32,000 bases of DNA. Origin: Polynucleobacter sp. MG-6-Vaara-E2 (GTDB taxonomy: Bacteria > Pseudomonadota > Gammaproteobacteria > Burkholderiales > Burkholderiaceae). The stretch lies in the NCBI RefSeq assembly GCF_018687695.1, contig NZ_CP061303.1:1578394-1610393 (forward strand), read 5' to 3'. Both the position numbers and the translations under genes were made by a program. Under the pieces are notes generated by a model, which did no database searches, had not been told where the DNA came from, and was given only the letters and a program-made list of their open reading frames with translations. Of the stretch, positions 3,017-32,000 are shown piece after piece (positions within the stretch are counted from its first letter, which is position 1; each line of letters begins with the position of its first letter).

Positions 3017-4351
3017 TTAGGCTGCTATTTTCTCGGGGATAACCATATGTTTTACCAATCCATCTAGATCACTCTTTAGTAATAGACGCTTTTCTAGTAA
3101 TCCATCCTTTATAGCAAGCAAAAGTTTTTTGTTTTTGCTTAAGATCAACTTAACAGCCCTATATTGCATTTGTATGAATTTCTTAGCCTCAATTCGATAA
3201 TCCTCAGAGTGCGACTCAAAGCAACCATTCGCAACTACTAATAGGCTGTCACCGTCATACTCATTTATGCCATAGTTAGAGGAAAAGCCATTTTTAGTCA
3301 TCAAATTAAATACCTTCCAAGTTGCCTCCTTAAGATCGCTGTTAGCGCAATCTGCACCAACATTAAGCTCGCCAAGAATTAGCTCTTCGGCTACCCTACC
3401 GGCTAAATCTATTCTGATAGCAATTCGTACTTGTGAAAATGATCTAAATAAACCCCCGCGATATATATGTCTGTAATCTTGAACCATTACTCCAGCCATA
3501 TCCTTAGATGGAATAATGGACACCCAATCCGGAATATTCTCAAAACCTGATTCAGCCATTGCAACTACAGCATGACCTGCTTCATGAGCGGCAATTTGCT
3601 CGGGGTCTGGATAGTCCTGAAAACTCAAGCCCTCCCCAGTGCCATTGATTGCCACTTGAAGCACATCTTGCAGGCCTATCTTTCTCTTTTCCCTAAATGC
3701 CACTCTTTTTAAAGTCTTCTCTAACATTCCAAATCTGCGCTTACTAGCAAAATCTAAACATAGAATGCACCCCAATCTATGCTGGTCATTCAGTAAATCA
3801 TCACTCACTATGTCAGCGCTAAGTTGCTCCAAAAAATCACTTGCGTGAAAATTCGGCTTAGGCGAAGCCCAAAGAATATGGCGATCGAATTTATTTTGAT
3901 AGCGAAAAGCCTCCGCAATCTCTCCAAAAGAGCTGCAGATGCTTGTAATAACTTTTGACGTGCCGTTAATCAAATCCAACACTTCAGAAACAAGCTTCTT
4001 ATTTGATAAATCTTCTTCCGATGGATTTTCTGCTTCTAGCCATCCGCCAGACTCAATAAATATGATTGTGGGTCCATCAGCCTTACTTATTAAATCTTTA
4101 AGGGACTGAAGGCTGTCTTGCTGCACTTCAATAAACTTGGCACCTGTAATGTCGGATACCCACTTTAAAAAATCAAGATAAGCGTCCTTATCTGCAGCCT
4201 CAATCATTAGCCCATTCCCCAATAAGCCCCAGGATAGATCCTGCTTGTTAAATGGATCACATAGAGAGCTAAATTCAGTTAACCACTGTGCCAATGCTGG
4301 CTGACGCTCCCGTAATTTCAAAAACTCTATTTTTTTGGTTAAATTTTTCAT
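3017..4351 (-). CDS. Soluble FtsH-like peptidase (M41 domain intact) fused to a degenerate AAA+-like N-domain
   Basis: HEAGH zinc motif at residues 256-260 (nt 3572-3586). The surrounding sequence is FtsH-like (VSIIPSKDMAGVMV; LAGRVAEELILGE..GA..DL..AT). The N-domain keeps the AAA+ layout (TIIFIESGG where FtsH has IIFIDEID), but the Walker A position reads GLLGNGLMIEAADKD with no GK[ST]. No TM helices are visible. Confidence 0.8.
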   Translation of the reverse strand: MKNLTKKIEFLKLRERQPALAQWLTEFSSLCDPFNKQDLSWGLLGNGLMIEAADKDAYLDFLKWVSDITGAKFIEVQQDSLQSLKDLISKADGPTIIFIESGGWLEAENPSEEDLSNKKLVSEVLDLINGTSKVITSICSSFGEIAEAFRYQNKFDRHILWASPKPNFHASDFLEQLSADIVSDDLLNDQHRLGCILCLDFASKRRFGMLEKTLKRVAFREKRKIGLQDVLQVAINGTGEGLSFQDYPDPEQIAAHEAGHAVVAMAESGFENIPDWVSIIPSKDMAGVMVQDYRHIYRGGLFRSFSQVRIAIRIDLAGRVAEELILGELNVGADCANSDLKEATWKVFNLMTKNGFSSNYGINEYDGDSLLVVANGCFESHSEDYRIEAKKFIQMQYRAVKLILSKNKKLLLAIKDGLLEKRLLLKSDLDGLVKHMVIPEKIAA

Positions 4352-13358: not shown

Positions 13359-13406
13359 TTAACACTTTATAAAAATTGCATTTAGAATGTGATGCTTAAG
13401 TGTTAA
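13359..13406. promoter_or_regulatory. 9-bp inverted repeat TTAACACTT...AAGTGTTAA in a divergent promoter region
   Basis: Arms at 13359-13367 and 13398-13406 are exact reverse complements. They lie in the 116-137-nt AT-rich gap between divergent ORFs 12814-13305 and 13443-14306. TTAGAAT is also repeated here. Confidence 0.3.
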
Positions 13407-13442
13407 TATATTTGTATGTATTTTTAAAGAAATGATTCAAAA

Positions 13443-14306
13443 ATGCTGCCAAACAAGTCAATGAAGGATTGGGCAACAAAAGGTATTCAGGGCTATGTGA
13501 TGCTGATGCTCGAATACCTGCGACTAAGTCCTAGCTATGAATTAGCTAGAAAGGCAAGAATGGGTAAGCTCACCGCCGCTGAAAAGAAGCATCTACCCGC
13601 TGACTTTGACCTGGTACTTAAGACTTACGATGAATATGGTGATGTTGCAACTATTCAATTTGCTGACTGGTGGGCAACTACTGGAATTGGACTTTATGGG
13701 TCGGAATACATCAAACCCCAAGTTCGACAGATTGGCAGAATGGAAAAGAATGAAGAATTTGAACCTGGCTTTACTAAATCATTAGAGCAATACTTCAAAA
13801 CTTTCAGAAAGCATGAAGGTAATGGGCCGGGGCTCATTCTAGCTATCCCACTTGGTATACCCAAAAGAGCAATCCTCAAACAAGTCTCCCTAATGATCAA
13901 TAAAACTGGTGTGACTGCCCCTCCTAAAGCCCAAAAAGCCAAGCGCTCCCTTACTGCCAAGCGTCTACGCTCACAACCCCTAATTAGAGGTATTAATTTG
14001 CTATGGCTTAAAGCCCAAAATCCTGACTGGGCACTATGGAGATTGGGGGTGTTAGCAAAGATCAGCCCAACAAATGCTGAAGGTCTGGATTATCGGAGTA
14101 CCAAGTCGACTACTAATACAGTTGATCAGAGAACGAATATGGCAGTTCTAACAAGCAGAGCACTTAGTAAAGCGCAATACATTGCAGAAAATGCTGCAAG
14201 GGGAAGATTCCCTGATCCCAAAAAAATATCCCTTCCGGAGTTTGATTACGAAGATATCTATAGGCGTATGCAAATCTCTAACCCCAAACTAAAAAAACCT
14301 AAATGA
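13443..14306 (+). CDS. Hypothetical protein, 287 aa, basic
   Basis: ORF track. Its 3' end overlaps the recombinase gene 3' end by 8 nt (convergent). No motif recognised. Confidence 0.7.
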   Translation: MLPNKSMKDWATKGIQGYVMLMLEYLRLSPSYELARKARMGKLTAAEKKHLPADFDLVLKTYDEYGDVATIQFADWWATTGIGLYGSEYIKPQVRQIGRMEKNEEFEPGFTKSLEQYFKTFRKHEGNGPGLILAIPLGIPKRAILKQVSLMINKTGVTAPPKAQKAKRSLTAKRLRSQPLIRGINLLWLKAQNPDWALWRLGVLAKISPTNAEGLDYRSTKSTTNTVDQRTNMAVLTSRALSKAQYIAENAARGRFPDPKKISLPEFDYEDIYRRMQISNPKLKKPK

Positions 14307-14937
14307 GCTCAACTGCCCTGCGCTTCATATCGTCATTCACATCAATATATGCCTGTGTAGTGCCGATATTGCGATGACCCGCTAAGCTCATTAGTACACG
14401 CACACCAATTCCTTTGCTAGCAAGATTGGTAATAAAGCTCCTACGACCACTATGACTAGTAGCACCAGCTATTCCAGACTCTTTATAGATGTGCTTAAAG
14501 TGCTGCGTTAAGGTATTTGCAGTAAACCCACGCTTAGGAAACTTCTGTGTAGGGAAGAATGCGTAGTTACGGTCTTTAATGGCGATCTCATTGGCAAAAG
14601 CTTGAAGCTCTGCCTTTAAGCGTTCATTAAGAAAGACCGTTCTTGGATGGCGTCCTTTGGTTTGCTCTGGCAATAAGCGGATCTCACTTTTCACCTGATT
14701 TTCCCCGTCTAAAACATCGCATATACGCAGGGCTGCTACTTCCCCTACTCTGAGCCCACCCCAATGGGTTAATAGCAACATAGCGCGGTTACGCACGCTG
14801 TGTTTGGTGGTTTGTACATATGTCAAAACTTGGGTAAGTTCTGCACTACTAAACGATTTTGCTTGTGGCATATAGCTGTCCTTTAAATGTAATAAATACG
14901 CAGCTACAGTATGTTTTCTGATGTTTGGTTTGGACAA
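14299..14937 (-). CDS. Small tyrosine recombinase (catalytic-domain-only, FimB/FimE-sized)
   Basis: Catalytic signature: GLRVGE (Arg I), TKG (Lys), HSGRRS (His-x-x-Arg II), GHRN (His/Trp position), TTQAYIDV (Tyr nucleophile). The track start at 14937 is TTG with no SD. The ATG at 14869-14871 has AAGGA 7 nt upstream and would give 190 aa. Confidence 0.85.
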   Translation of the reverse strand: MSKPNIRKHTVAAYLLHLKDSYMPQAKSFSSAELTQVLTYVQTTKHSVRNRAMLLLTHWGGLRVGEVAALRICDVLDGENQVKSEIRLLPEQTKGRHPRTVFLNERLKAELQAFANEIAIKDRNYAFFPTQKFPKRGFTANTLTQHFKHIYKESGIAGATSHSGRRSFITNLASKGIGVRVLMSLAGHRNIGTTQAYIDVNDDMKRRAVELI

Positions 14938-14942
14938 CCGAC

Positions 14943-14960
14943 TATGGCTTAAATGCCACA
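14943..14960 (+). promoter_or_regulatory. Candidate recombinase core-type site 1: TATGGC-TTAAAT-GCCACA
   Basis: Inverted 6-7-bp arms (CTATGGC / GCCACAG) surround an asymmetric 6-bp spacer. It is 17/18 identical to the site at 15077-15094 in the same orientation, and it lies just upstream of the recombinase gene. Confidence 0.5.
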
Positions 14961-14998
14961 GAAAAAAGGGCTTTCGATTTCAACGACTTACAAGATAA

Positions 14999-15034
14999 CT
15001 ACAGGAAAGCGCAATTTCCTGTAGTTTTTTATTT
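14999..15034 (+). terminator. Intrinsic terminator (10-bp stem CTACAGGAAA/TTTCCTGTAG, loop GCGCAA, then TTTTTTATTT)
   Basis: Read directly: perfect stem at 14999-15008 / 15015-15024 followed by six Ts (15025-15030). The orientation is plus strand, and no plus-strand CDS ends nearby. Confidence 0.7.
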
Positions 15035-15076
15035 AGCTGGTTTTTACTGGAAAACCATGGCGTAAATGGCTAAAGT

Positions 15077-15094
15077 TATGGCTTAGATGCCACA
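15077..15094 (+). promoter_or_regulatory. Candidate recombinase core-type site 2: TATGGC-TTAGAT-GCCACA
   Basis: Direct repeat of site 1, offset by 134 bp, with a single difference inside the spacer (A->G). A half-site-like AATGGCTAAAG lies immediately upstream (15064-15075). Confidence 0.5.
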
Positions 15095-15103
15095 AACCTT
15101 AAG

Positions 15104-15490
15104 TTAATTTAATTCCAACGCCACTGGAAAATCTTGATCATTTTCCTGAATCCATCCACGTATTTCATCTAAGAAATTAGCTACGAATTCCGGGTCTTCA
15201 TCAAGATCATCATATCCCGATAGGTCATCAATAATTTGAAATTCCCTATACATTGCTTCTGAGTGGTCAGATGCCGATGCAAAGTATATTTCAGCATCAT
15301 CAGTACCAAGCCACCTTAACATTTCATATAACTTATTATGCCGGTCTGAGAATTTAAGAATATGGGCTAATAACGCCTTCTCAAATCCAGTTATATCCTT
15401 GTCGTAAACTCTGGCTCCCATTGCATAGTCATCCATTGCGACTAACCATGGAGTTAATAGATTTTCAGGGGCATTGGGATTGTTTGCCAT
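15104..15490 (-). CDS. Small highly acidic hypothetical protein, 128 aa
   Basis: AAGGA lies 5 nt upstream of the ATG. By my count there are about 28 Asp/Glu versus 9 Arg/Lys (e.g. DDLSGYDDLDEDPEF). Confidence 0.7.
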   Translation of the reverse strand: MANNPNAPENLLTPWLVAMDDYAMGARVYDKDITGFEKALLAHILKFSDRHNKLYEMLRWLGTDDAEIYFASASDHSEAMYREFQIIDDLSGYDDLDEDPEFVANFLDEIRGWIQENDQDFPVALELN

Positions 15491-15605
15491 ATAGATCCTT
15501 ATTAATGGATTAAATTCTATCTTAATATAAGGCGAAAGTATTCGCCTGTGATTCGCTTTCGCTCATCACTTTTTTCATCTTTTAATGTTTGAATAATTGA
15601 TTTAT

Positions 15606-15670
15606 AGAACTTTTGATAGATTCAACCTACACTGAGCCTTAAGCAACAGGCTCAGCTATAGAAAAGTTCT
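15606..15670. other. Nested inverted-repeat structure in an ORF-poor spacer
   Basis: Outer arms AGAACTTTT (15606-15614) / AAAAGTTCT (15662-15670) enclose the hairpin CTGAGCC-ttaagcaaca-GGCTCAG (15632-15655). CTTTTGAT(A/G) is directly repeated after each outer arm. Confidence 0.5.
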
Positions 15671-16203
15671 TTTGATGAGTTCTTTGCTACACCACTATAA
15701 GCACAACCAAATTGGTAAGGGCGGTTTCGCTGTCTCCTTTTATGTGCGGCTTTAAAACGCAACAATGACAAAAGCAATAAGTGGCTACCTTTGTCTTGCT
15801 TGAAAGTTGCTGTGTAAGCAGAGCTTTCTCGTGACTGTCAGAGCTTGAGGCCCTCGTCTTTCAGCTTAAATTGACATCTCCAAGATTCATGCCAGATAGC
15901 TAGTCTGTCTGCGTCCTGTTAAGGATAGTGAATACAAGTCTCTGCTACCGCCCAGAATTTCCGTCTCCGTGATCACTAATGTCCAGTTTTCGGATGGCAT
16001 AACGAATGAGTGCCACAGCTCTTTTTCGGTAGTAATTATTGGCAAACAGAGCTTTCCTCTGAACTGCTTGTCATAGTTATTTAGCAAACCACACAAATTC
16101 CTGCTTAATTCTGGATTCTTTAGGTTAGCTTTTTTCAGGTTGCCCAACCACCGAACCCGATCATATTGTTATAGGTGCCCATTCATTTATCAAGGAAACC
16201 AAT

Positions 16204-16641
16204 ATGAGCACACTAAATTCACTTAAATTAGTAGCCGTTATAAAACCAGCTAAGTTACCACCAGTTGTCCAAAGAAGAAATAAGCTATCCGATAAGATCT
16301 GGGAGCAGATCCAATTGGCGGAAGCTAAAAGCAATGGAGGCACATATGCTCCACTAAAATCCAAACGCCTTAAAGATCTAGAGGGTAATATCAAGCTGTT
16401 AGAGGTACCCAAGCGTATTAAACCCTGGTGGTTTACTGCCCCAAATGGCAAAGTCTGCTTGATACTGCGATACGGATCCAAAGTGCTTGAAATAGCACAG
16501 GGCAAATCTGCTATTGAACTAGATAAGCCCGCAGAACTTATTCCAACATTACAAAAGATTAAGACTGCGGTTGAAGCAGGAGAACTAGATCACTTAATTA
16601 ATGCTGCAACTGAAGCGGTAAGAATGGGATTTAAACATTAA
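16204..16641 (+). CDS. Hypothetical protein, 145 aa
   Basis: AAGGAA lies 6 nt upstream of the ATG. The composition looks coding-like, and the antisense ORF 16161-16505 is judged to be a shadow. Confidence 0.7.
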   Translation: MSTLNSLKLVAVIKPAKLPPVVQRRNKLSDKIWEQIQLAEAKSNGGTYAPLKSKRLKDLEGNIKLLEVPKRIKPWWFTAPNGKVCLILRYGSKVLEIAQGKSAIELDKPAELIPTLQKIKTAVEAGELDHLINAATEAVRMGFKH

Positions 16642-16667
16642 TACTTGAAGTATCAATAAATATAGAT

Positions 16668-17006
16668 ATGAACAAATATCTAGCCACTATTACCCTAAAA
16701 GGCCAGTCGATTAAAACAGTCGTTTTTGCCGACAGCGCAATTCATGCAAGACTAATACTGGAGTATCAGTTTGGCATGAACTGTATCCTTAGTAGCCCCA
16801 TCGCAACCACTAAAGAATCATCAGGGGGCATATCGATTGAGGAGGCACTACAAATGATTAAGCCCCTAAAACCCATGACTCCACAGCAACTAACTATTGA
16901 TACCCTGAAAAAACAAAAGGATCAGGCCAACAATAGACTTAAAGCCGAACGCAATCGTCAAAAGATTGCTAAGGCTCAAAAGAATCTATTCAATCTATCT
17001 AGATGA
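16668..17006 (+). CDS. Hypothetical protein, 112 aa, basic C-terminal helix
   Basis: ORF track. It starts 26 nt after the preceding gene. There is no clear SD. The tail is KKQKDQANNRLKAERNRQKIAKAQK. Confidence 0.55.
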   Translation: MNKYLATITLKGQSIKTVVFADSAIHARLILEYQFGMNCILSSPIATTKESSGGISIEEALQMIKPLKPMTPQQLTIDTLKKQKDQANNRLKAERNRQKIAKAQKNLFNLSR

Positions 17007-18174: not shown

Positions 18175-19899
18175 TCATTGAAATCCATCTTTAATAATTT
18201 CTATGGATTTAGTTGAAGCAACTACCGAAAGTAAAGTTTTCGCCCTGGAAATGCCAACATAAATTAATTCTGTTTCTTTGCTATCAAAGACTTCATCACC
18301 AACCCATAAAATTACTGCGCTGGACTCTAATCCTTTAAACCGATAAACGCTATCTACCAATACCTGATTGGATCGCCTGGCATGATTCCCGAATGACAAC
18401 TTGACTCCATGCAGACTTGCTTCATGCTCTAATGCCTTATAAGCCATCTCCTTATCTTGCCCAGTAATAAGAATAACTATATCCACAGGTTTAATAGCAT
18501 CATCAGATGTCCATTTTGCTAATGTATTAAGTATCTCTTTAACCTGTGAATCTTGATCATTTATAGCTAATAATTGCGCATTGGGGCCCTGTAACTCGGG
18601 CTCATCCACGACCTCGCCTTTATAAAAGTTATACGCCAACCTATGAATTGGAATAGTATTTCTGCAGTTTGCAGTCAAATGATATGGGGCCTCGGTAACC
18701 GGTAAATTCCCATGTCTTTTATATATCTCTTGGTTTTGATCGATAAAAATATAGAGATAACTTTTATTCACATCCTTAAGAAGCTCTTCTATTCCAAACC
18801 AATATTCATCACTAAAATCTTGGGCCTCATCAATCACAATTGCATCAAATTTTTCATCTAATAATTCATTAGAGAGGGCTAGTGCGTATGGCATCTGGAC
18901 ACCGTATAAGTGAAAACTTGAGTTTCCTGGGTATGCTTCTGCTGCCTCTTTTAACAAGTCCCGTCCTGTGCTTCCTTTTGCCTGTCTAATTCTTCGGTCA
19001 CATAATTGATGAAAATCCAATACGGCCAGCAAAGGTTGATCTTGTAATGCAAGAGCCAATGAATCAGCTAAAGGTCGGTTGTAACAAAGTAGAAGTGTTT
19101 TTAACCCGTTACTAGCAAAATACTTTGCCTTCTCAACTGCAATTAATGTTTTTCCCGTTCCAGCGCCACCAGAAATAACAGCCCGCGTTCTCCCACCAAT
19201 AATGCGTAGCACTTTTGCTTGATTATTGGTCAACCGAATTCTTTGTACTTCCGCATCATCAATGGTCGCCACAAATGCCGGCCTCACCTCAATCGGTTTC
19301 GTCAAAAATTTCTCAAGAATTTTGACTCCCTGGGAGCCTAATGGGGTTTCTCCGTTCTGACGCCAGAATTTAATTAATCTATCTAACCATGATGTAAGGC
19401 TTTTCAAATCTACTGAAATACCAATAAGCTCTCGTGGACGCTCTGGGCCGACAATATTTGCTGAATCGGCAATATCAGGAAAAAATACGCTATGTCCGAG
19501 CGAGACGCGCTCACCCTTCCATTGTCTCCATTCGGGACTTCCATTCAATTGATCAAGCAAAGCATGACGCTCACTAGATGCTTGTCTAAATGGGTCCTTT
19601 ATTTCATGCTGATAGCCATTACGATCTTTCGAGGACCATTTTCCATTGGCGGGGTCAAAAGAAATACCCCCGCCTTTTACCTCCACTACATAAATGCCCG
19701 CAGTTGGTGTAAGGATAATGAAATCAGCCTCACCTTCTTTTAATCTTCCTCGTGCGTCTTTATAAAGCCAACCTGCGCTATGAATCACCACAAAGTCTGA
19801 AGATAATTGATCGCGGCATGCCTCATAAAATCGCGCCTCAGCACGTGATTTAACTGCCGATAATTGATCGCCAGTAAGGAGCGGAATCATGCGAGCCAT
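18175..19899 (-). CDS. NERD-domain nuclease-like + SF1 (UvrD/RecD-like) helicase fusion, 574 aa
   Basis: NERD domain: FYEACRD...EADFIILTPTAGIYVVEVKG (D59, E73, K75). Helicase motifs: Walker A GGAGTGKT (K250), Walker B AIVIDEAQDF (D357/E358), VYRFKGLESSAVIL, LIYVGISRAKTLL. The ATG is 2 nt after the stop of the upstream giant ORF. Confidence 0.9.
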   Translation of the reverse strand: MARMIPLLTGDQLSAVKSRAEARFYEACRDQLSSDFVVIHSAGWLYKDARGRLKEGEADFIILTPTAGIYVVEVKGGGISFDPANGKWSSKDRNGYQHEIKDPFRQASSERHALLDQLNGSPEWRQWKGERVSLGHSVFFPDIADSANIVGPERPRELIGISVDLKSLTSWLDRLIKFWRQNGETPLGSQGVKILEKFLTKPIEVRPAFVATIDDAEVQRIRLTNNQAKVLRIIGGRTRAVISGGAGTGKTLIAVEKAKYFASNGLKTLLLCYNRPLADSLALALQDQPLLAVLDFHQLCDRRIRQAKGSTGRDLLKEAAEAYPGNSSFHLYGVQMPYALALSNELLDEKFDAIVIDEAQDFSDEYWFGIEELLKDVNKSYLYIFIDQNQEIYKRHGNLPVTEAPYHLTANCRNTIPIHRLAYNFYKGEVVDEPELQGPNAQLLAINDQDSQVKEILNTLAKWTSDDAIKPVDIVILITGQDKEMAYKALEHEASLHGVKLSFGNHARRSNQVLVDSVYRFKGLESSAVILWVGDEVFDSKETELIYVGISRAKTLLSVVASTKSIEIIKDGFQ

Positions 19900-19901
19900 T
19901 G

Positions 19902-22900
19902 CTAATCTTTAGACAAAATCATCTTCGAAGGTGCAAATGTTTTTGAAATTTTATTTTGATTTTCATCTAGAAAATATATTTTATAAATTTGACCATATGC
20001 TTTAATATCTTCAATCTTAACCTTTCCTACATCAGGAATATTTACATACAACCCAATCTCTGGTTGCAAAATTTCTAAAGAATCTTTTTGCGCAATTGTT
20101 TTCCAACCAGAATCAAATCTAAATTGGTTGGTATTTTCAAACGGATTCTTTATTAGATAGCTTCGGCGCCTGTTTTCATCTTGCGCAAATTCGACAACAC
20201 ACAGCCAGTATCTGTCACCAGCTTCAATGGCTTTCTTTAATTCTGTTGGGGTAAGTATTACACCCTCCTCAGTCCAACCATTTGTCTGTCCTTTTACCTC
20301 TATATACTCCTCTATACCCTCAAATGAAGTTGCCTTAACATCGAATCCGGGATTGTTATGAGGCATCTCAGTGAATGAAATCCATTTTGCTTTGTGCTCT
20401 TCCAGAAAATACTTAACAGCAGCCCTTGCAGTAGCATCGCGAGAGGCAACGACTTCAGCGCTAAGTTCACCAGCCTCCTCACTTGAATCCTTGCCACTAT
20501 CAGCATAGCTGATTAGCCTGCCTGAAGAAGCGCGCTCTTTGAAGTTATCTTCAGATCGTTTTGAGGAGCTATTTTGAGGAGTGAGATGAGATTCTCCAAT
20601 ATTTACAGAGGATGCCGGCTCGCTAGACTCGCTCAAATTGGGAGATGTTCTGCTGGGGGATGCAAATTTTTCAGCTTTATCAAACAAGGAGGGTATTTTA
20701 AATTTTTCGTCGCCAGTAAAGTCACCGCGCTCTAAGGAGCTATTAGTTGTGGATGCGATCGACTGACTTCCATCCTCCTTGAATTCGGTTGGTACATTAG
20801 GCGTATTGACCTGTATTGGGTCTGCATCGTCACCGTCTGAATTATTGACATTTGCCCCCTCCTCGCCATTTAAGTCCAGTGGGGTTTCTAAAATTAATCC
20901 ATCCAATCCCTTAGAAACATCACTTGGTAAATCAGGAACTCCTTTAACTCTAAGGATATTTGCAAGCTCACTGTCATTTTTTGCTAGTAATAATCTTGCG
21001 ATAAGGTCCGAACTTTTAATACCAAAAAAGTTACATATTTCTTCGGCGATTAAATCCTCTTCAGGACTTGCATCCTCTTGCAAATAGATGCTACCTGAAT
21101 CATATATGGCATCAATTTTCGAGCGTTTAACTATTTCCGAAAGTTCTATCTCAACATTTAAATCTTTTAGTTTAAAAACTTTTACATTTGCAAGAATGCT
21201 AAATTTATGATTTTCCATCGCTTCTTCAAAGGCGCGAGGATTCTTGTGATAAAAAACACGAGCAAAAAAAGGTGTTAACTCCTTAATTTTAGTTGTCATA
21301 TACTCATCGAGCACACCACGCGAATCAAGCAGTACTCGCTTCTCTATATTTTCAGAAACAAAATCAATTGGAATTTCAGAGAATAAATTTCTTAATCGTG
21401 GAATTTCAGCCGATGGGATAGCAAGAAATGAAAGTCTTTCTTCATCAAAAAAAAGTTCTCCATATTCATCAAAATCATTCACATAAAGATTATCTGAATT
21501 GGAAACCATCTGACTATGCTGATTTAGGTATACAGCATTACTTCTAATGAAATCGAGCCAATCATCTATATCAAGATTATTTTTAATAGCATCGTCGTAC
21601 TCTCTCCCTGCCTGCTTATATATCCTTATCGCCTCTTCCTTCTTCTTTTGCTGATCTGGGATTGAATCTAATTCAGTGAGTGCCACAATTTTCTGGGAAA
21701 TTGATAACTTTTCAGTTACCCCTAGTTTTCCTACAAAAAATCCATGGAAATCTCGATAAGTCTGCTCTAGGGGTGGATATATGGAATCGAGGAATTGTTC
21801 ATTTGAAGCCCAAGTCACCTCATCTTTTTTTGCCCAAAACACATCGCCTTTTTTCTTTATCCTTATTAGTCCATAGTAACTAAATTGAAAGTCAGTATTT
21901 TCATCCCATAGAGTTTCGAGCTTCCTATATATAGCCTTTAGCTGAGCGCCCGTTTCACCGCCTGCCTCCTTAAGCTGCTTAAGCCTTTTAACACAGGCCT
22001 CAGAGTCAACTTGATAGGTTATGCCGCAAATATCCAATAACTCTTCATTAAATATTGTTGCCGTTAAATAAGGTGGCGTATCACCAAAAATATCTTCGAT
22101 ATCCTGATTCCGATAATAAGATTGGCTTATTGGAATATTGCCCCGCTTATTTACTGGAGCAAACATTCCTGATAGTGCATTTGCAAAATGACTACTCACC
22201 ATAGTTGGGGATTTACGACGAGAGCCTAATGATGTCTCGAGCTTGTCCTGGTAATAGTCCCAATTTTTATCAATTATTTCAAGTGTAGCTTTTCTAATTT
22301 CTGAATTTTCAGAATCCAGCAATAATTGCAATTCCTCGGACGGCGAAGGGTTTGTGCCATCAACCACACGAGGATAATCAATAATTCCAATTTGCTTAAA
22401 AAATAATATCCATGATTTTTTTTCTTCAAAAATATTTGAAGCTGTTTCGTCAATATAACTTGCAGAAACTAGTACTTCCTTACCAATTGATGACTTAAGA
22501 AAACGCTCTATTGAGAATGAAGGGTCATATTCATCGCTTATATATAGAGTATCCGGTTTTGCAAAAACCCACTCCTGCTTGTCTTTGGATTTCGAGCCAA
22601 TATACATTCCATTAGAAATGACTCTAGTAGCCCTATTTACTGCAAAAATGTTTTCATTTTTGGCCTCAGATGCGATGAACGCTTCAAAATTATCCTTTAC
22701 ATATCTTAAATGGCCAATTAATGCCTCGTTCTCAGATGATTTCCGCCCCTCAGAACTGTGCAATGGAAGGATATGAGATTTAATGACTGTATATGAGTCT
22801 GGTTGTTTAATATTAATTTTCGCAAAAAATTCATAAGCCTCTTTACATTTCGAGATAGCGAGTTCGCATATATTGTTATCAACAAATGTTAACTCCCCCT

Positions 22901-24476
22901 CAAATCCATATTTTTTATTTTTACCAAGCGGATAATAAGCATCCCCATCATCTGGAGCAGCAAACCCACCACCAGCAAGAGGAATGCAATTAACGGAAGA
23001 TATGCCAGCCATTAGTAATGTACTAATATTTCGCGTCGCTAAGAAGGCGTAAAAATTAGACTTCCATTCAACCGATTGGCTATCTAGCCAATCCTGCTGC
23101 GCCCTAAAAATATCAACCAAATCTTCATCCGTTAAACTTTTCACACCTAATATCTTCAACATCTCAAATTCTTTTTTACAACGCTTATCAAGATAATAAA
23201 AATTAAATAGCTTTTCAGCTATTTGCGGCGGAAAAAGGTTTTGGAATTCTGGTGGTGCTATCCGAATATCTCTTGGCTTTTTCCAGCCGCCCCCTTGAAC
23301 AGGAAGACTTTCTACATTTGATAGCTTTTCCAAAATTGCCATTGGCAAATCTTTAAAAAAGGGGTCAACGATTCGATCGAAATCTGAAAGAAAACTCAAA
23401 TACGAATAGGTTAATGGCTCGCTAGCTTTAAATCTTGCCAATACCTCAGTTGAAAAAATATCAGCAATCTGATCCTTGAGATATGTATTCCATGCTGAGC
23501 TAGTGTTTATATCTTGTCTACTGGCACTTAAGATAAAGTCTGCCTGTATTATGAATTTGAAGCCAAAATTACGAATTGGTAAATATGCAAAGACATTCTC
23601 GTCATTTGTAACTTTTGCCTCTCCATTTTCTTTTAATGAAAATGCAAGAACAATTTCACTTGAACTAATTTCAACTCGACTTTCTTCACTTACACCTGAA
23701 ACATCAATTAATTTTGATACGCGAAGATAATTATTTTTTTCTTCTTTACTAACACCCCCCAAGAATGTTCTACTAGTTAAAGTAGTGTGCTCATCCCTAT
23801 CAAGCCTTAGATAAATTAATTTATTTTCTGATTGTTCTATTTTTATTTCTTTAAGCTTTGATAAAAAGAGCAATAACCTTGGATCAAAAGCTTTAAATGT
23901 CTCATTATTGAATTGGTAACCAGTCTTAGCGGGCAAAATAATTGTTGTCTCATGCTTACCCACTTCTCCGCTAGGCTCATGCCACTCGGGGACTATATAC
24001 CCAAGCAAATTTTCTGGGTCTAACCGATTAAAACGAAAATGAAATCCATTCGAATGGATTTCGGGGGCATCTGAAACCGCAAAGACTGATTTAAATCCAA
24101 TGCCTTTTTCACCAATAAATCCTCGATTCTTAGACTTAGAACTTTTGCCGGTTGTACATAAAGCTGAAACGTTCTCTTCACGAAATCCTAGCTCATTATT
24201 TACAAGTCGAAGGCTATTGGGTGTGATATGAAATTCAAGCTTAGGAATTATCTTTGGATCGTATTGGTTATCATCAGCATTTTGAATAACCTCCAATACA
24301 AAATGTCCTTGGTCGTTATATAGCCCGGTCGATAGAAGTCGGAGTGCATTGTTATAGCCATCAATCACCCTGTCTTTACCTGGTCTAAAGTTGTTAGTTC
24401 CAGCTTCATCAATTCCAAATTCCTTTCGGATTTCAGAAATTATCATGTAAGGCGTTTTGGACATCAGTTTGATCAA
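19902..24476 (-). CDS. Giant sacsin/NO VEIN-like GHKL ATPase with a C-terminal DUF3883 (PD-(D/E)xK-fold) domain, 1524 aa
   Basis: Bergerat-fold motifs: LEVIQNADDN (res 61-70, nt 24267-24293), NNELGF, GEKGIGFKSVF (res 122-132). C-terminus: NPGFDV...EEYIEVKG (E1393/K1395) ...RYWLCVVEF, which is typical of DUF3883. The track start is TTG at 24476, and the first ATG is at 24464. Confidence 0.9.
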   Translation of the reverse strand: MIKLMSKTPYMIISEIRKEFGIDEAGTNNFRPGKDRVIDGYNNALRLLSTGLYNDQGHFVLEVIQNADDNQYDPKIIPKLEFHITPNSLRLVNNELGFREENVSALCTTGKSSKSKNRGFIGEKGIGFKSVFAVSDAPEIHSNGFHFRFNRLDPENLLGYIVPEWHEPSGEVGKHETTIILPAKTGYQFNNETFKAFDPRLLLFLSKLKEIKIEQSENKLIYLRLDRDEHTTLTSRTFLGGVSKEEKNNYLRVSKLIDVSGVSEESRVEISSSEIVLAFSLKENGEAKVTNDENVFAYLPIRNFGFKFIIQADFILSASRQDINTSSAWNTYLKDQIADIFSTEVLARFKASEPLTYSYLSFLSDFDRIVDPFFKDLPMAILEKLSNVESLPVQGGGWKKPRDIRIAPPEFQNLFPPQIAEKLFNFYYLDKRCKKEFEMLKILGVKSLTDEDLVDIFRAQQDWLDSQSVEWKSNFYAFLATRNISTLLMAGISSVNCIPLAGGGFAAPDDGDAYYPLGKNKKYGFEGELTFVDNNICELAISKCKEAYEFFAKINIKQPDSYTVIKSHILPLHSSEGRKSSENEALIGHLRYVKDNFEAFIASEAKNENIFAVNRATRVISNGMYIGSKSKDKQEWVFAKPDTLYISDEYDPSFSIERFLKSSIGKEVLVSASYIDETASNIFEEKKSWILFFKQIGIIDYPRVVDGTNPSPSEELQLLLDSENSEIRKATLEIIDKNWDYYQDKLETSLGSRRKSPTMVSSHFANALSGMFAPVNKRGNIPISQSYYRNQDIEDIFGDTPPYLTATIFNEELLDICGITYQVDSEACVKRLKQLKEAGGETGAQLKAIYRKLETLWDENTDFQFSYYGLIRIKKKGDVFWAKKDEVTWASNEQFLDSIYPPLEQTYRDFHGFFVGKLGVTEKLSISQKIVALTELDSIPDQQKKKEEAIRIYKQAGREYDDAIKNNLDIDDWLDFIRSNAVYLNQHSQMVSNSDNLYVNDFDEYGELFFDEERLSFLAIPSAEIPRLRNLFSEIPIDFVSENIEKRVLLDSRGVLDEYMTTKIKELTPFFARVFYHKNPRAFEEAMENHKFSILANVKVFKLKDLNVEIELSEIVKRSKIDAIYDSGSIYLQEDASPEEDLIAEEICNFFGIKSSDLIARLLLAKNDSELANILRVKGVPDLPSDVSKGLDGLILETPLDLNGEEGANVNNSDGDDADPIQVNTPNVPTEFKEDGSQSIASTTNSSLERGDFTGDEKFKIPSLFDKAEKFASPSRTSPNLSESSEPASSVNIGESHLTPQNSSSKRSEDNFKERASSGRLISYADSGKDSSEEAGELSAEVVASRDATARAAVKYFLEEHKAKWISFTEMPHNNPGFDVKATSFEGIEEYIEVKGQTNGWTEEGVILTPTELKKAIEAGDRYWLCVVEFAQDENRRRSYLIKNPFENTNQFRFDSGWKTIAQKDSLEILQPEIGLYVNIPDVGKVKIEDIKAYGQIYKIYFLDENQNKISKTFAPSKMILSKD

Positions 24477-31877: not shown

Positions 31878-32000
31878 CTTCTTCCCCTATACTGCGCGCG
31901 CACCCTCTCACGCTTAACAAAAAATAGGTGCTCAACAAATGGTTTGCCACAAACCATAAAAAGACCCAATAAAAAGATGGCCATCAACTTGGGGGTGAAA
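31874..32000 (-). CDS. Possible partial CDS (N-terminus may lie off the window), hydrophobic then basic tail
   Basis: The reverse strand reads ...FTPKLMAIFLLGLFMVCGKPFVEHLFFVKRERVRAQYRGRR*, with a TGA overlapping the next ATG. It is open to the window edge. Only 42 codons are visible. Confidence 0.3.
   Translation of the reverse strand, partial: FTPKLMAIFLLGLFMVCGKPFVEHLFFVKRERVRAQYRGRR

Follow-up and report, generated by a model that had tools for sequence, protein, structure and literature searches.

In Polynucleobacter sp. MG-6-Vaara-E2, the gene of a small tyrosine recombinase lies directly beside two almost identical palindromic sites with a hairpin between them, raising the question of what such a compact arrangement does for the DNA that carries it. 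We analysed it in a stretch of 32,000 nucleotides (NCBI RefSeq assembly GCF_018687695.1, contig NZ_CP061303.1, positions 1,578,394 to 1,610,393), which is called the window; all coordinates are those of the window, with (+) and (-) for its strands. An earlier note, made from the letters of the window, had offered three answers: an excisable terminator cassette acting as a genetic switch, tandem att junctions, or autoregulatory binding sites. Comparison with relatives points elsewhere. To judge by sequence conservation, the gene and about 220 bp upstream of it (14299-15094) form one conserved cis/trans module of 0.8 kb, which is found in small genomic islands with integrases in Burkholderiales from freshwater and soil. 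The enzyme most likely acts on this upstream DNA. Most likely the module handles the DNA of its island in the course of transfer or resolution, rather than working as a switch that excises a terminator. By analogy with MobK, MpsA and TcpM, the relaxases of class MOB_M, we tentatively favour a module of the relaxase/oriT type (oriT, origin of transfer).

The recombinase and its conserved module

The recombinase gene occupies 14299-14871 (-) and encodes a protein of 190 residues, identified by Pfam and NCBIfam-type models, alignment and structure-profile comparison. The list of open reading frames (ORFs) gives 14299-14937 (-), a frame of 212 residues counted from a TTG. The start codon and the catalytic residues were read from an alignment of 26 family members, the protein of the window and 25 homologues. 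In 24 of the 25 homologues the start is the internal ATG (14871), with AAGGA before it, and therefore the protein is taken as 190 residues long. This ribosome-binding site (14879-14883, -) lies 7 nt 5' of the ATG, and a GGAG-type motif is conserved at the same place in the other loci. The TTG of the longer frame is part of the -35 hexamer of a predicted sigma-70 promoter (14908-14937, -), with TTGTCC at 14932-14937, an 18-nt spacer and the -10 hexamer CATACT at 14908-14913. This promoter scores under the threshold of a simple promoter scan; its consensus GGTTGyCC-N17/18-ACAnACT is kept over 78 loci.

PF00589 spans nearly the entire protein with an E-value of 8.5e-26, and the catalytic residues R41, K72, H140, R143, H166 and Y175 are invariant in the alignment. 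In the structures of XerC-like, XerA and XerD proteins, the family profile matches the catalytic C-terminal half only (residues 103-273 of 292, for example), and therefore the core-binding domain is absent, as is the arm-binding domain. The earlier note had described a protein of the size of FimB and FimE with the catalytic domain only and all signature residues, and this description holds. Kinship with FimB and FimE is not supported: the invertase models NF007370 and NF007371, which have cut-offs of 221 and 222 bits, give scores of 38.8 and 22.5. XerA, XerC and XerD are the best sequence matches, at scores below the curated cut-offs of their models (79.9 against 220, 63.0 against 335 and 66.4 against 330 bits, respectively). 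The IntI-specific model TIGR02249 gives 49.5 bits against a cut-off of 265. An integron integrase with a cassette array was rejected on this score and because the far edge of the variable slot next to the module is a different palindrome, AGGCGAA-N4-TTCGCCT. The two-domain resolvase architecture of Xer, TnpI and ResD was also rejected, as the core-binding domain is absent.

A homologue search yielded 5,631 family members at E <= 0.001, and the 120 best homologues are mostly 188-191 residues long. The family is found in Polynucleobacter, Ferrovum, Burkholderia, Paraburkholderia, Limnohabitans and many freshwater metagenomes. A literature search found no paper on the recombinase family or on DUF6641, the family of a neighbouring gene product, and no experimental characterisation.

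Near relatives were found by scanning metagenomes with the exact 18-mer, which returned 44 contigs. Fifteen of them are recombinase modules and the other 29 are unrelated occurrences. The recombinase is 95-98% identical in the 12 module contigs having the gene, the remaining three ending at the contig edge, and each of the 15 holds a single exact copy of the 18-mer, which is site 1 (see below). Among 16 near relatives, identity is about 92% from the recombinase stop codon (14295-14299) to 15074-15100. Homology breaks at the inner edge or the end of site 2, and the DNA past site 2 is unrelated. All 16 are colinear with the window, and the 134-bp segment from site to site is neither deleted nor inverted in any of them. 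Genomic context was counted in 80 fetched loci with recombinases 53-99% identical, and the layout of the block is still recognisable in these.

Two paralogous palindromes bracket the upstream block

Site 1 (TATGGCTTAAATGCCACA, 14943-14960) is the promoter-proximal palindrome and reads TGTGGC-ATTTAA-GCCATA on the recombinase strand. Site 2 (TATGGCTTAGATGCCACA, 15077-15094) is the distal one, reads TGTGGC-ATCTAA-GCCATA and lies at the edge of the conserved module. The two are direct repeats, identical at 17 of 18 positions and 134 bp apart from start to start, and the note was right to regard them as real. The pattern with up to three mismatches was seen three times in the window against 0.10 expected, and none of 100 shuffles reached three; the match between the two 18-mers is far beyond chance. 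The third match (14002-14019) lies in the conserved coding motif LLWxKA of the adjoining gene for a 287-residue protein and is probably fortuitous. An 11-mer from site 2 and its flank recurs at 31945-31955 within an unrelated perfect hairpin, ATGGTTTG-CCA-CAAACCAT, and was treated as chance. Two other identities were considered and rejected, that of a DnaA box, with which the sites agree at no more than 5-6 of 9 positions, and that of a sigma-54 promoter, for which the spacing is wrong.

Each site consists of TGGC-N6-GCCA with one further pair, which is no more than a G.T wobble on the recombinase strand. A gap of 5 nt separates site 1 from the -35 hexamer, and at this position autoregulation, one of the earlier suggestions, is plausible; site 2 sits 9 nt after the stop codon of the upstream gene. 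Site 1 is identical among the near relatives except in L112 and L103, which have the spacer ATCTAA, and the window's site 2 is exactly equal to this site-1 allele. Distant loci have a palindrome or a hairpin at the site-1 position. At the site-2 position, the palindrome YGTGGC-N6-GCCAYA was found in 12 of 17 near elements, the window included, with nine different spacers (ATCTAA, ATCTCA, GTCTTA, AACATT, TGGGGT, AGCTTA, ATCTTC, AGCTAA and ATCTTA); two of the others keep the right arm only and three show nothing recognisable. The closest genomic relative, L001 (Polynucleobacter sp. Latsch14-2, a contig of 2,168 bp), has a rearranged upstream side and the right arm only of site 2. Palindromes of the same type also occur upstream of the hairpin in the distant loci L005, L021, L058 and L064.

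The two sites of a near relative differ from each other at about 5 of 18 positions, spacer included. The sequence comparison thus supports two paralogous sites bracketing the hairpin as the conserved feature, while the near-identical repeat is peculiar to the window. The arm-spacer-arm geometry described earlier is borne out, as the relatives keep the arms and vary the 6-bp spacer at the distal position. Conserved arms with a free spacer are the signature of a protein-binding site. Core sites of the Xer/TnpI/ResD type have inverted arms with a 6-8-bp spacer near the gene, and YGTGGC-N6-GCCAYA at two positions has this form; the geometry would suit a core site of a tyrosine recombinase. The shorter pattern TGGC-N(4-8)-GCCA is not enriched upstream of the recombinase (0.22 per kb, against 0.20 in the background). 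All six upstream matches are N6-spaced, and five of the six have the extended arms GTGGC/GCCAC.

A hairpin and an invariant box

Towards the gene, the block consists of site 2, two GCCAT half-sites, a TAAATA motif, a 12-bp hairpin, the box TAAGTCRTTGAA, site 1 and the promoter. Over the loci, the layout is one of binding-type repeats, (G)CTAAATA, a hairpin, the box YTAAGTCRTTGAA, a second palindrome or hairpin, the promoter consensus GGTTGyCC-N17/18-ACAnACT, a leader and GGAG. The hairpin (14997-15026) has perfect AT-rich arms of 12 bp, with 4 of 12 stem pairs G-C, and a loop of 6 nt, and is followed by T6 on the (+) strand. The predicted RNA folding energy is -17.1 kcal/mol for the (+) strand and -15.8 kcal/mol for the (-) strand, z being about -4 in each case. 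This is the element that had been taken for a terminator lying exactly between the sites. A 12-bp hairpin is indeed present; it is not exactly midway, and it is a conserved, covarying element with conserved motifs on its flanks.

At this position 42% of the loci have a hairpin with 9 bp or more, compared with 6% of control windows from the same loci; this is the unbiased measure of its conservation. The arms themselves diverge among loci (CTACAGGAAA, ATCAAAGCTAAT, AAAAGGTTTT, ATGTAAGGATTT, AACCACATCAAA and others). In 26 loci, two-sided changes were found in 12 of 12 pairs and 89% of the cells are paired against 30-50% in slid controls, a count that is biased because the set was selected and hairpin-centred. 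Among the near relatives the loop varies and the stem is unchanged. The stems are AT-rich even in high-GC Burkholderia loci, and distant loci keep the hairpin with no T-run adjoining the stem on the opposite strand. G.T wobbles show no strand bias (3 against 5), so that the acting strand of the hairpin cannot be assigned. From these sequence features, the hairpin seems a better fit to a structured DNA or RNA element with flanking recognition sequences than to a simple terminator.

The invariant box TAAGTCRTTGAA follows the hairpin. In the window the box reads TTGTAAGTCGTTGAAATC (14976-14993, -), the family consensus is YTAAGTCRTTGAA, and in most loci it comes 5-25 nt after the hairpin. The conserved motif GCTAAATA (15030-15037, -) immediately precedes the hairpin. 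Further upstream, at 15038-15070 (-), a small hairpin (15038-15057) and two direct GCCAT half-sites (15057-15061 and 15066-15070) are conserved in the near relatives and in L002 and L004. Perfect DnaA boxes (TTATCCACA), one to three in number and all in the same orientation, were found within 350 nt upstream of the recombinase in 17 loci, which suggests that the block may function as an origin in those islands. L015, L018, L023, L035, L042, L063-L068, L072, L075 and L077-L079 are loci of this kind.

A predicted relaxase/oriT-type module

Relaxases of class MOB_M are described as a catalytic domain with a Tyr nucleophile and no arm- or core-binding domain (PMC8152469), and this is the architecture of the recombinase. 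The block upstream of it holds inverted and direct repeats and would, on this reading, act as oriT. For MobK, MpsA and TcpM, which are catalytic-domain-only proteins, the oriT is made up of repeats, inverted as well as direct, and lies in the 125-190 bp or so that immediately precede the gene (PMC8152469; PMC6414798). A 2026 preprint (10.64898/2026.01.13.699239) reports MOB_M to be the commonest class of relaxase in chromosomes, with an integrase close to 96% of its members, and notes that annotation often labels them as integrases. A hairpin of conserved structure with an invariant box after it resembles the layout that nick regions usually have. In geometry and in the TAAGT(G/C) start of the box it is similar to the IncQ oriT, which was confirmed in 121 plasmids as an inverted repeat with TAAGTGCG after it.

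Based on these likenesses, we propose the following course of events for the module. The recombinase would bind the GTGGC/GCCAY arms, and its binding at site 1 would also autoregulate its own promoter. It would cut one strand in or near the region of the hairpin and the box, and thereby act as the transfer-initiating enzyme of the island. The conjugation machinery of a helper element would then mobilise the island, and the slot for acidic proteins beyond site 2 would be the leading region, the first to enter the recipient.

Three systems were compared. MobK belongs to the Klebsiella plasmid pIGRK, which has a size of 2.3 kb. Similar to the recombinase here, it is small and has the catalytic domain only (Y179 against Y175), and its minimal oriT of 186 bp lies directly upstream with inverted and direct repeats and overlaps the promoter region (PMC8152469). 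However, MobK belongs to a plasmid instead of an integrated island, the G-rich element of its oriT was not seen in the block, and its relaxase activity was demonstrated whereas that of the recombinase is inferred; the comparison with MobK is by description only. MpsA of SGI1, with its partner MpsB, is a recombinase-like protein in a mobilisable island that carries an integrase, with a 125-bp oriT with inverted repeats beside the gene (PMC6414798), and, as in the window, a structured RNA is encoded nearby (PMC9299015). MpsA requires the separate, core-binding-like MpsB, whereas no such partner was recognised here, the adjoining 287-residue protein having no fold match; the oriT of SGI1 is also GC-rich whereas the block is AT-rich. 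TcpM of the Clostridium perfringens plasmid pCW3 is a relaxase with the recombinase fold, and its oriT occupies the intergenic stretch that precedes its gene. It differs in its length of 266 residues and in its place on a conjugative plasmid beside coupling-protein genes.

Several observations weigh against the relaxase/oriT reading. Sequence comparison revealed no relationship to a characterised relaxase of class MOB_M: TcpM, taken from NC_010937, reaches an hhalign probability of only 22% with the family profile, and MobK and MpsA were likened to the family by description only. Around none of the loci were conjugation genes seen. Homologues on plasmids, distant ones with 34-35% identity, are close to ParA-type partition genes, which fits multimer resolution. 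The Rep-like gene of HUH type described below, upstream of the block in 21 of the 80 loci, could encode the enzyme of the hairpin and the box, and the perfect DnaA boxes in the block of 17 loci hint at a replication origin. Finally, FimB and FimE, of similar size, carry out full recombination. They are like the recombinase in having about 200 residues, no N-terminal domains and the catalytic Tyr near residue 175. Their sites, by contrast, are inverted repeats flanking an invertible promoter, whereas the sites here are direct and no inversion was found in the relatives.

Alternative readings of the module

The relaxase/oriT reading was weighed against four others. The main rival is a system of the res type, which is possible, though we hold it doubtful. 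The recombinase would carry out full strand exchange at site 2 as the core site, with the GCCAT half-sites and site 1 as accessory and autoregulatory elements. Such a system would resolve multimers of an excised, replicating island and, as a by-product, exchange modules between islands at site 2. Inverted arms around a 6-bp spacer with extra direct half-sites immediately upstream of the gene argue for it, and the arrangement of TnpI and its internal resolution site in Tn4430 resembles such an array of a core and half-sites. For TnpI as for ResD and rfsF of the F plasmid, the target lies upstream of the gene or in the origin region. These targets consist of an inverted-repeat core with direct accessory repeats, and recombination at them makes mosaics with breakpoints at the core. 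The breakpoint between conserved and variable DNA is exactly at site 2 in the 16 relatives, and site 2 of the window has the sequence that L112 and L103 have at site 1. The distant homologues near ParA genes on plasmids and on an apparent phage-plasmid also agree with a resolvase, and so do the best sequence matches to XerA, XerC and XerD. Moreover, DnaA boxes, the HUH Rep-like gene and the helicase-like genes that occur in islands suggest that the islands replicate.

However, the Xer, TnpI, Cre and ResD resolvases have a core-binding domain, which the recombinase lacks, and the Xer models are far below their cut-offs (XerA, 79.9 against 220 bits). A res-type system leaves the covarying hairpin and the invariant box without explanation, and TnpI and ResD have no counterpart of them. 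Exchange would be hindered by the spacers, as they differ among elements and between both sites. No site of this kind is present at the other edge of the slot, and therefore the mosaic can be explained by homologous recombination in the conserved flanks.

Alternatively, the hairpin and the box could be the origin of another enzyme, either a rolling-circle double-strand origin or an oriT for the HUH Rep-like protein or a helper relaxase, with the recombinase serving separately; we regard this as unlikely. The HUH Rep-like family comprises proteins of about 170-200 residues with the motifs HAVTLT, LHYHxA and YxTKE, and its gene is directly upstream of the block in the 21 loci, among them L005, L009, L010, L015-L017, L021, L024, L025 and L081 (8959-9462). 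Of 22 members, 9 match PF23343. The box contains CTTGAT or ATTGAA, which resemble nick sites of the pC194/phiX174 type, and TAAGTGC as in the IncQ oriT. Orphan oriTs were reported to be common in islands (10.64898/2026.01.13.699239). On the other hand, the PF23343 matches are all below the gathering score, and the box occurs in many loci without an HUH gene as well as in those with one. The HUH gene is absent from the window and from the near relatives, yet the block is about 92% identical there as a unit with the recombinase.

A purely transcriptional role of the block is quite unlikely. The palindromes would be operators of another dimeric regulator or RNA stem-loops, and the hairpin a bidirectional terminator that shields the promoter of the recombinase both from the operon upstream and from antisense transcripts out of the convergent gene of the 287-residue protein. 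This agrees with the place of site 1 abutting the -35 hexamer and of site 2 just past the upstream stop codon (9 nt), and with half-sites 11 bp apart from centre to centre, a spacing that suits helix-turn-helix dimers. The hairpin has an A-run before it and a T-rich stretch after it, folds well on both strands and lacks a G.T wobble strand bias, as a bidirectional terminator might. Against this, the stems stay AT-rich even in the high-GC Burkholderia loci, the TAAATA motif and the box beside the hairpin are unnecessary for a terminator, the arms of the palindromes are conserved in sequence and do not covary, and the recombinase would be left without a function.

An excision switch, in which recombination between the direct sites removes the 134-bp hairpin cassette and alters read-through, is highly improbable: it would account for two direct sites with a 17/18 match beside a small recombinase, but no near relative has lost or inverted the segment, which is the most conserved non-coding part of the module, and the spacers differ in the relatives as well as, by one base, in the window itself. 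Tandem att junctions are not supported either, as the segment between the sites is the conserved core of the module and not inserted DNA, and full-length integrases lie elsewhere in the islands.

Island context and the variable slot

Beyond site 2, the window has an ORF of 128 residues (15104-15490, -) with a pI of 4.09, which is transcribed toward the hairpin and has no family match. The same slot in other loci holds one ORF on the recombinase strand. Twelve distinct ORFs were found, mutually unrelated, 96-309 residues long and all with a pI of 4.05-4.87. They come from the window and from L002, L004, L005, L096, L101, L106, L110, L112, L118, L120 and L133, near relatives included. A strongly acidic composition is typical of anti-restriction proteins that mimic DNA, and this suggests that the slot ORFs are candidate DNA-mimic or anti-restriction proteins. 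Their orientation toward the hairpin is that reported for anti-defence genes of leading regions (PMC11541004). The conserved leader resumes at about 15529-15540, beyond the slot. A palindrome, AGGCGAA-AGTA-TTCGCCT at 15529-15546, marks this other edge, and a second conserved inverted repeat, GTGAT...ATCAC, precedes it.

On the other side, the convergent partner gene (13443-14306, +; family fam286) encodes 287 residues and overlaps the recombinase stop codon by 8 bp. It adjoins the recombinase convergently in 30-33 of the 80 loci. AlphaFold gives a confident all-alpha model of the protein (pLDDT 80.4), which has no PDB fold match at E <= 0.001. The DUF6641 gene (16204-16641, +; PF20346, E 2.1e-20), a divergent core gene of the island family, is about 2 kb upstream of the recombinase and syntenic in 49 of the 80 loci. 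Searches of the neighbouring proteins against Pfam, NCBIfam and PHROGs gave almost no matches.

At least 37 of the 80 loci have a full-length integrase no more than 6 kb away, and islands of Burkholderia cenocepacia and Paraburkholderia caledonica begin with a 328-residue integrase adjoining coaD. Since full-length integrases lie elsewhere in the islands, the small recombinase is a second recombinase of the island and not its integrase. The cargo of the islands examined includes the defence-type genes SIR2-HerA, RES, PLD, MmeI-type and NERD-helicase. In the window, a NERD/UvrD-type helicase of 574 residues adjoins a protein of 1,524 residues with sacsin-like and NOV_C domains (18175-24476, -), which looks like defence cargo. 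In the relatives L003 and L004 the corresponding place, beyond an RNase T-like gene, is taken by an integrase. Among the called genes of five islands with precomputed Pfam annotation, no relaxase or mating-pore Pfam family is on record. No tRNA gene is present in the window, and a search of plasmid DNA with 13400-16700 gave no match.

The window also has a full-length match to the Polynucleobacter-1 RNA (RF01718) at 15885-16021 (-), which scores 71.8 bits where the gathering score is 37. The match is part of the leader of an operon extending from the divergent region of the DUF6641 gene via the acidic ORF to the module. This stretch is 80% conserved in the metagenomic relative L122, but the RNA is absent from 11 more distant loci; therefore it is not linked to the recombinase family-wide. 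A group I intron (RF00028, 54.5 bits) was found in the flank of a Polynucleobacter locus, at 3076-3304 (+) of L002.

Significance

Systems of either kind are known, both relaxases of recombinase fold with an oriT upstream and small resolvases with a res site upstream. The family, the anatomy of its cis-acting block and the link to a slot for acidic proteins appear to be undescribed. If the module is a resolvase, it would show how modules are exchanged between islands and would be, to our knowledge, the smallest Xer-like resolution system described. Recombinase-fold relaxases were characterised recently in three systems, and their cleavage sites and mechanism are still unclear (PMC8152469). With its 0.8 kb, hundreds of natural variants, invariant box and covarying hairpin, the module would lend itself to finding the nick site and working out the binding code. 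The slot offers a ready catalogue of candidate anti-defence proteins. It is possible, although we hold this with less confidence than the relaxase/oriT reading itself, that the large, uncharacterised family of more than 5,600 members is a new clade of recombinase-type relaxases whose nick region can be defined. Each member and its structured upstream block would then be a self-contained module that mobilises small defence and anti-defence islands across Burkholderiales, among them those of Polynucleobacter, a genus abundant in freshwater, and the slot would be a hotspot of new acidic proteins like those of anti-restriction. If the recombinase is indeed a relaxase, it would account for the mobility of small islands of a widespread class.

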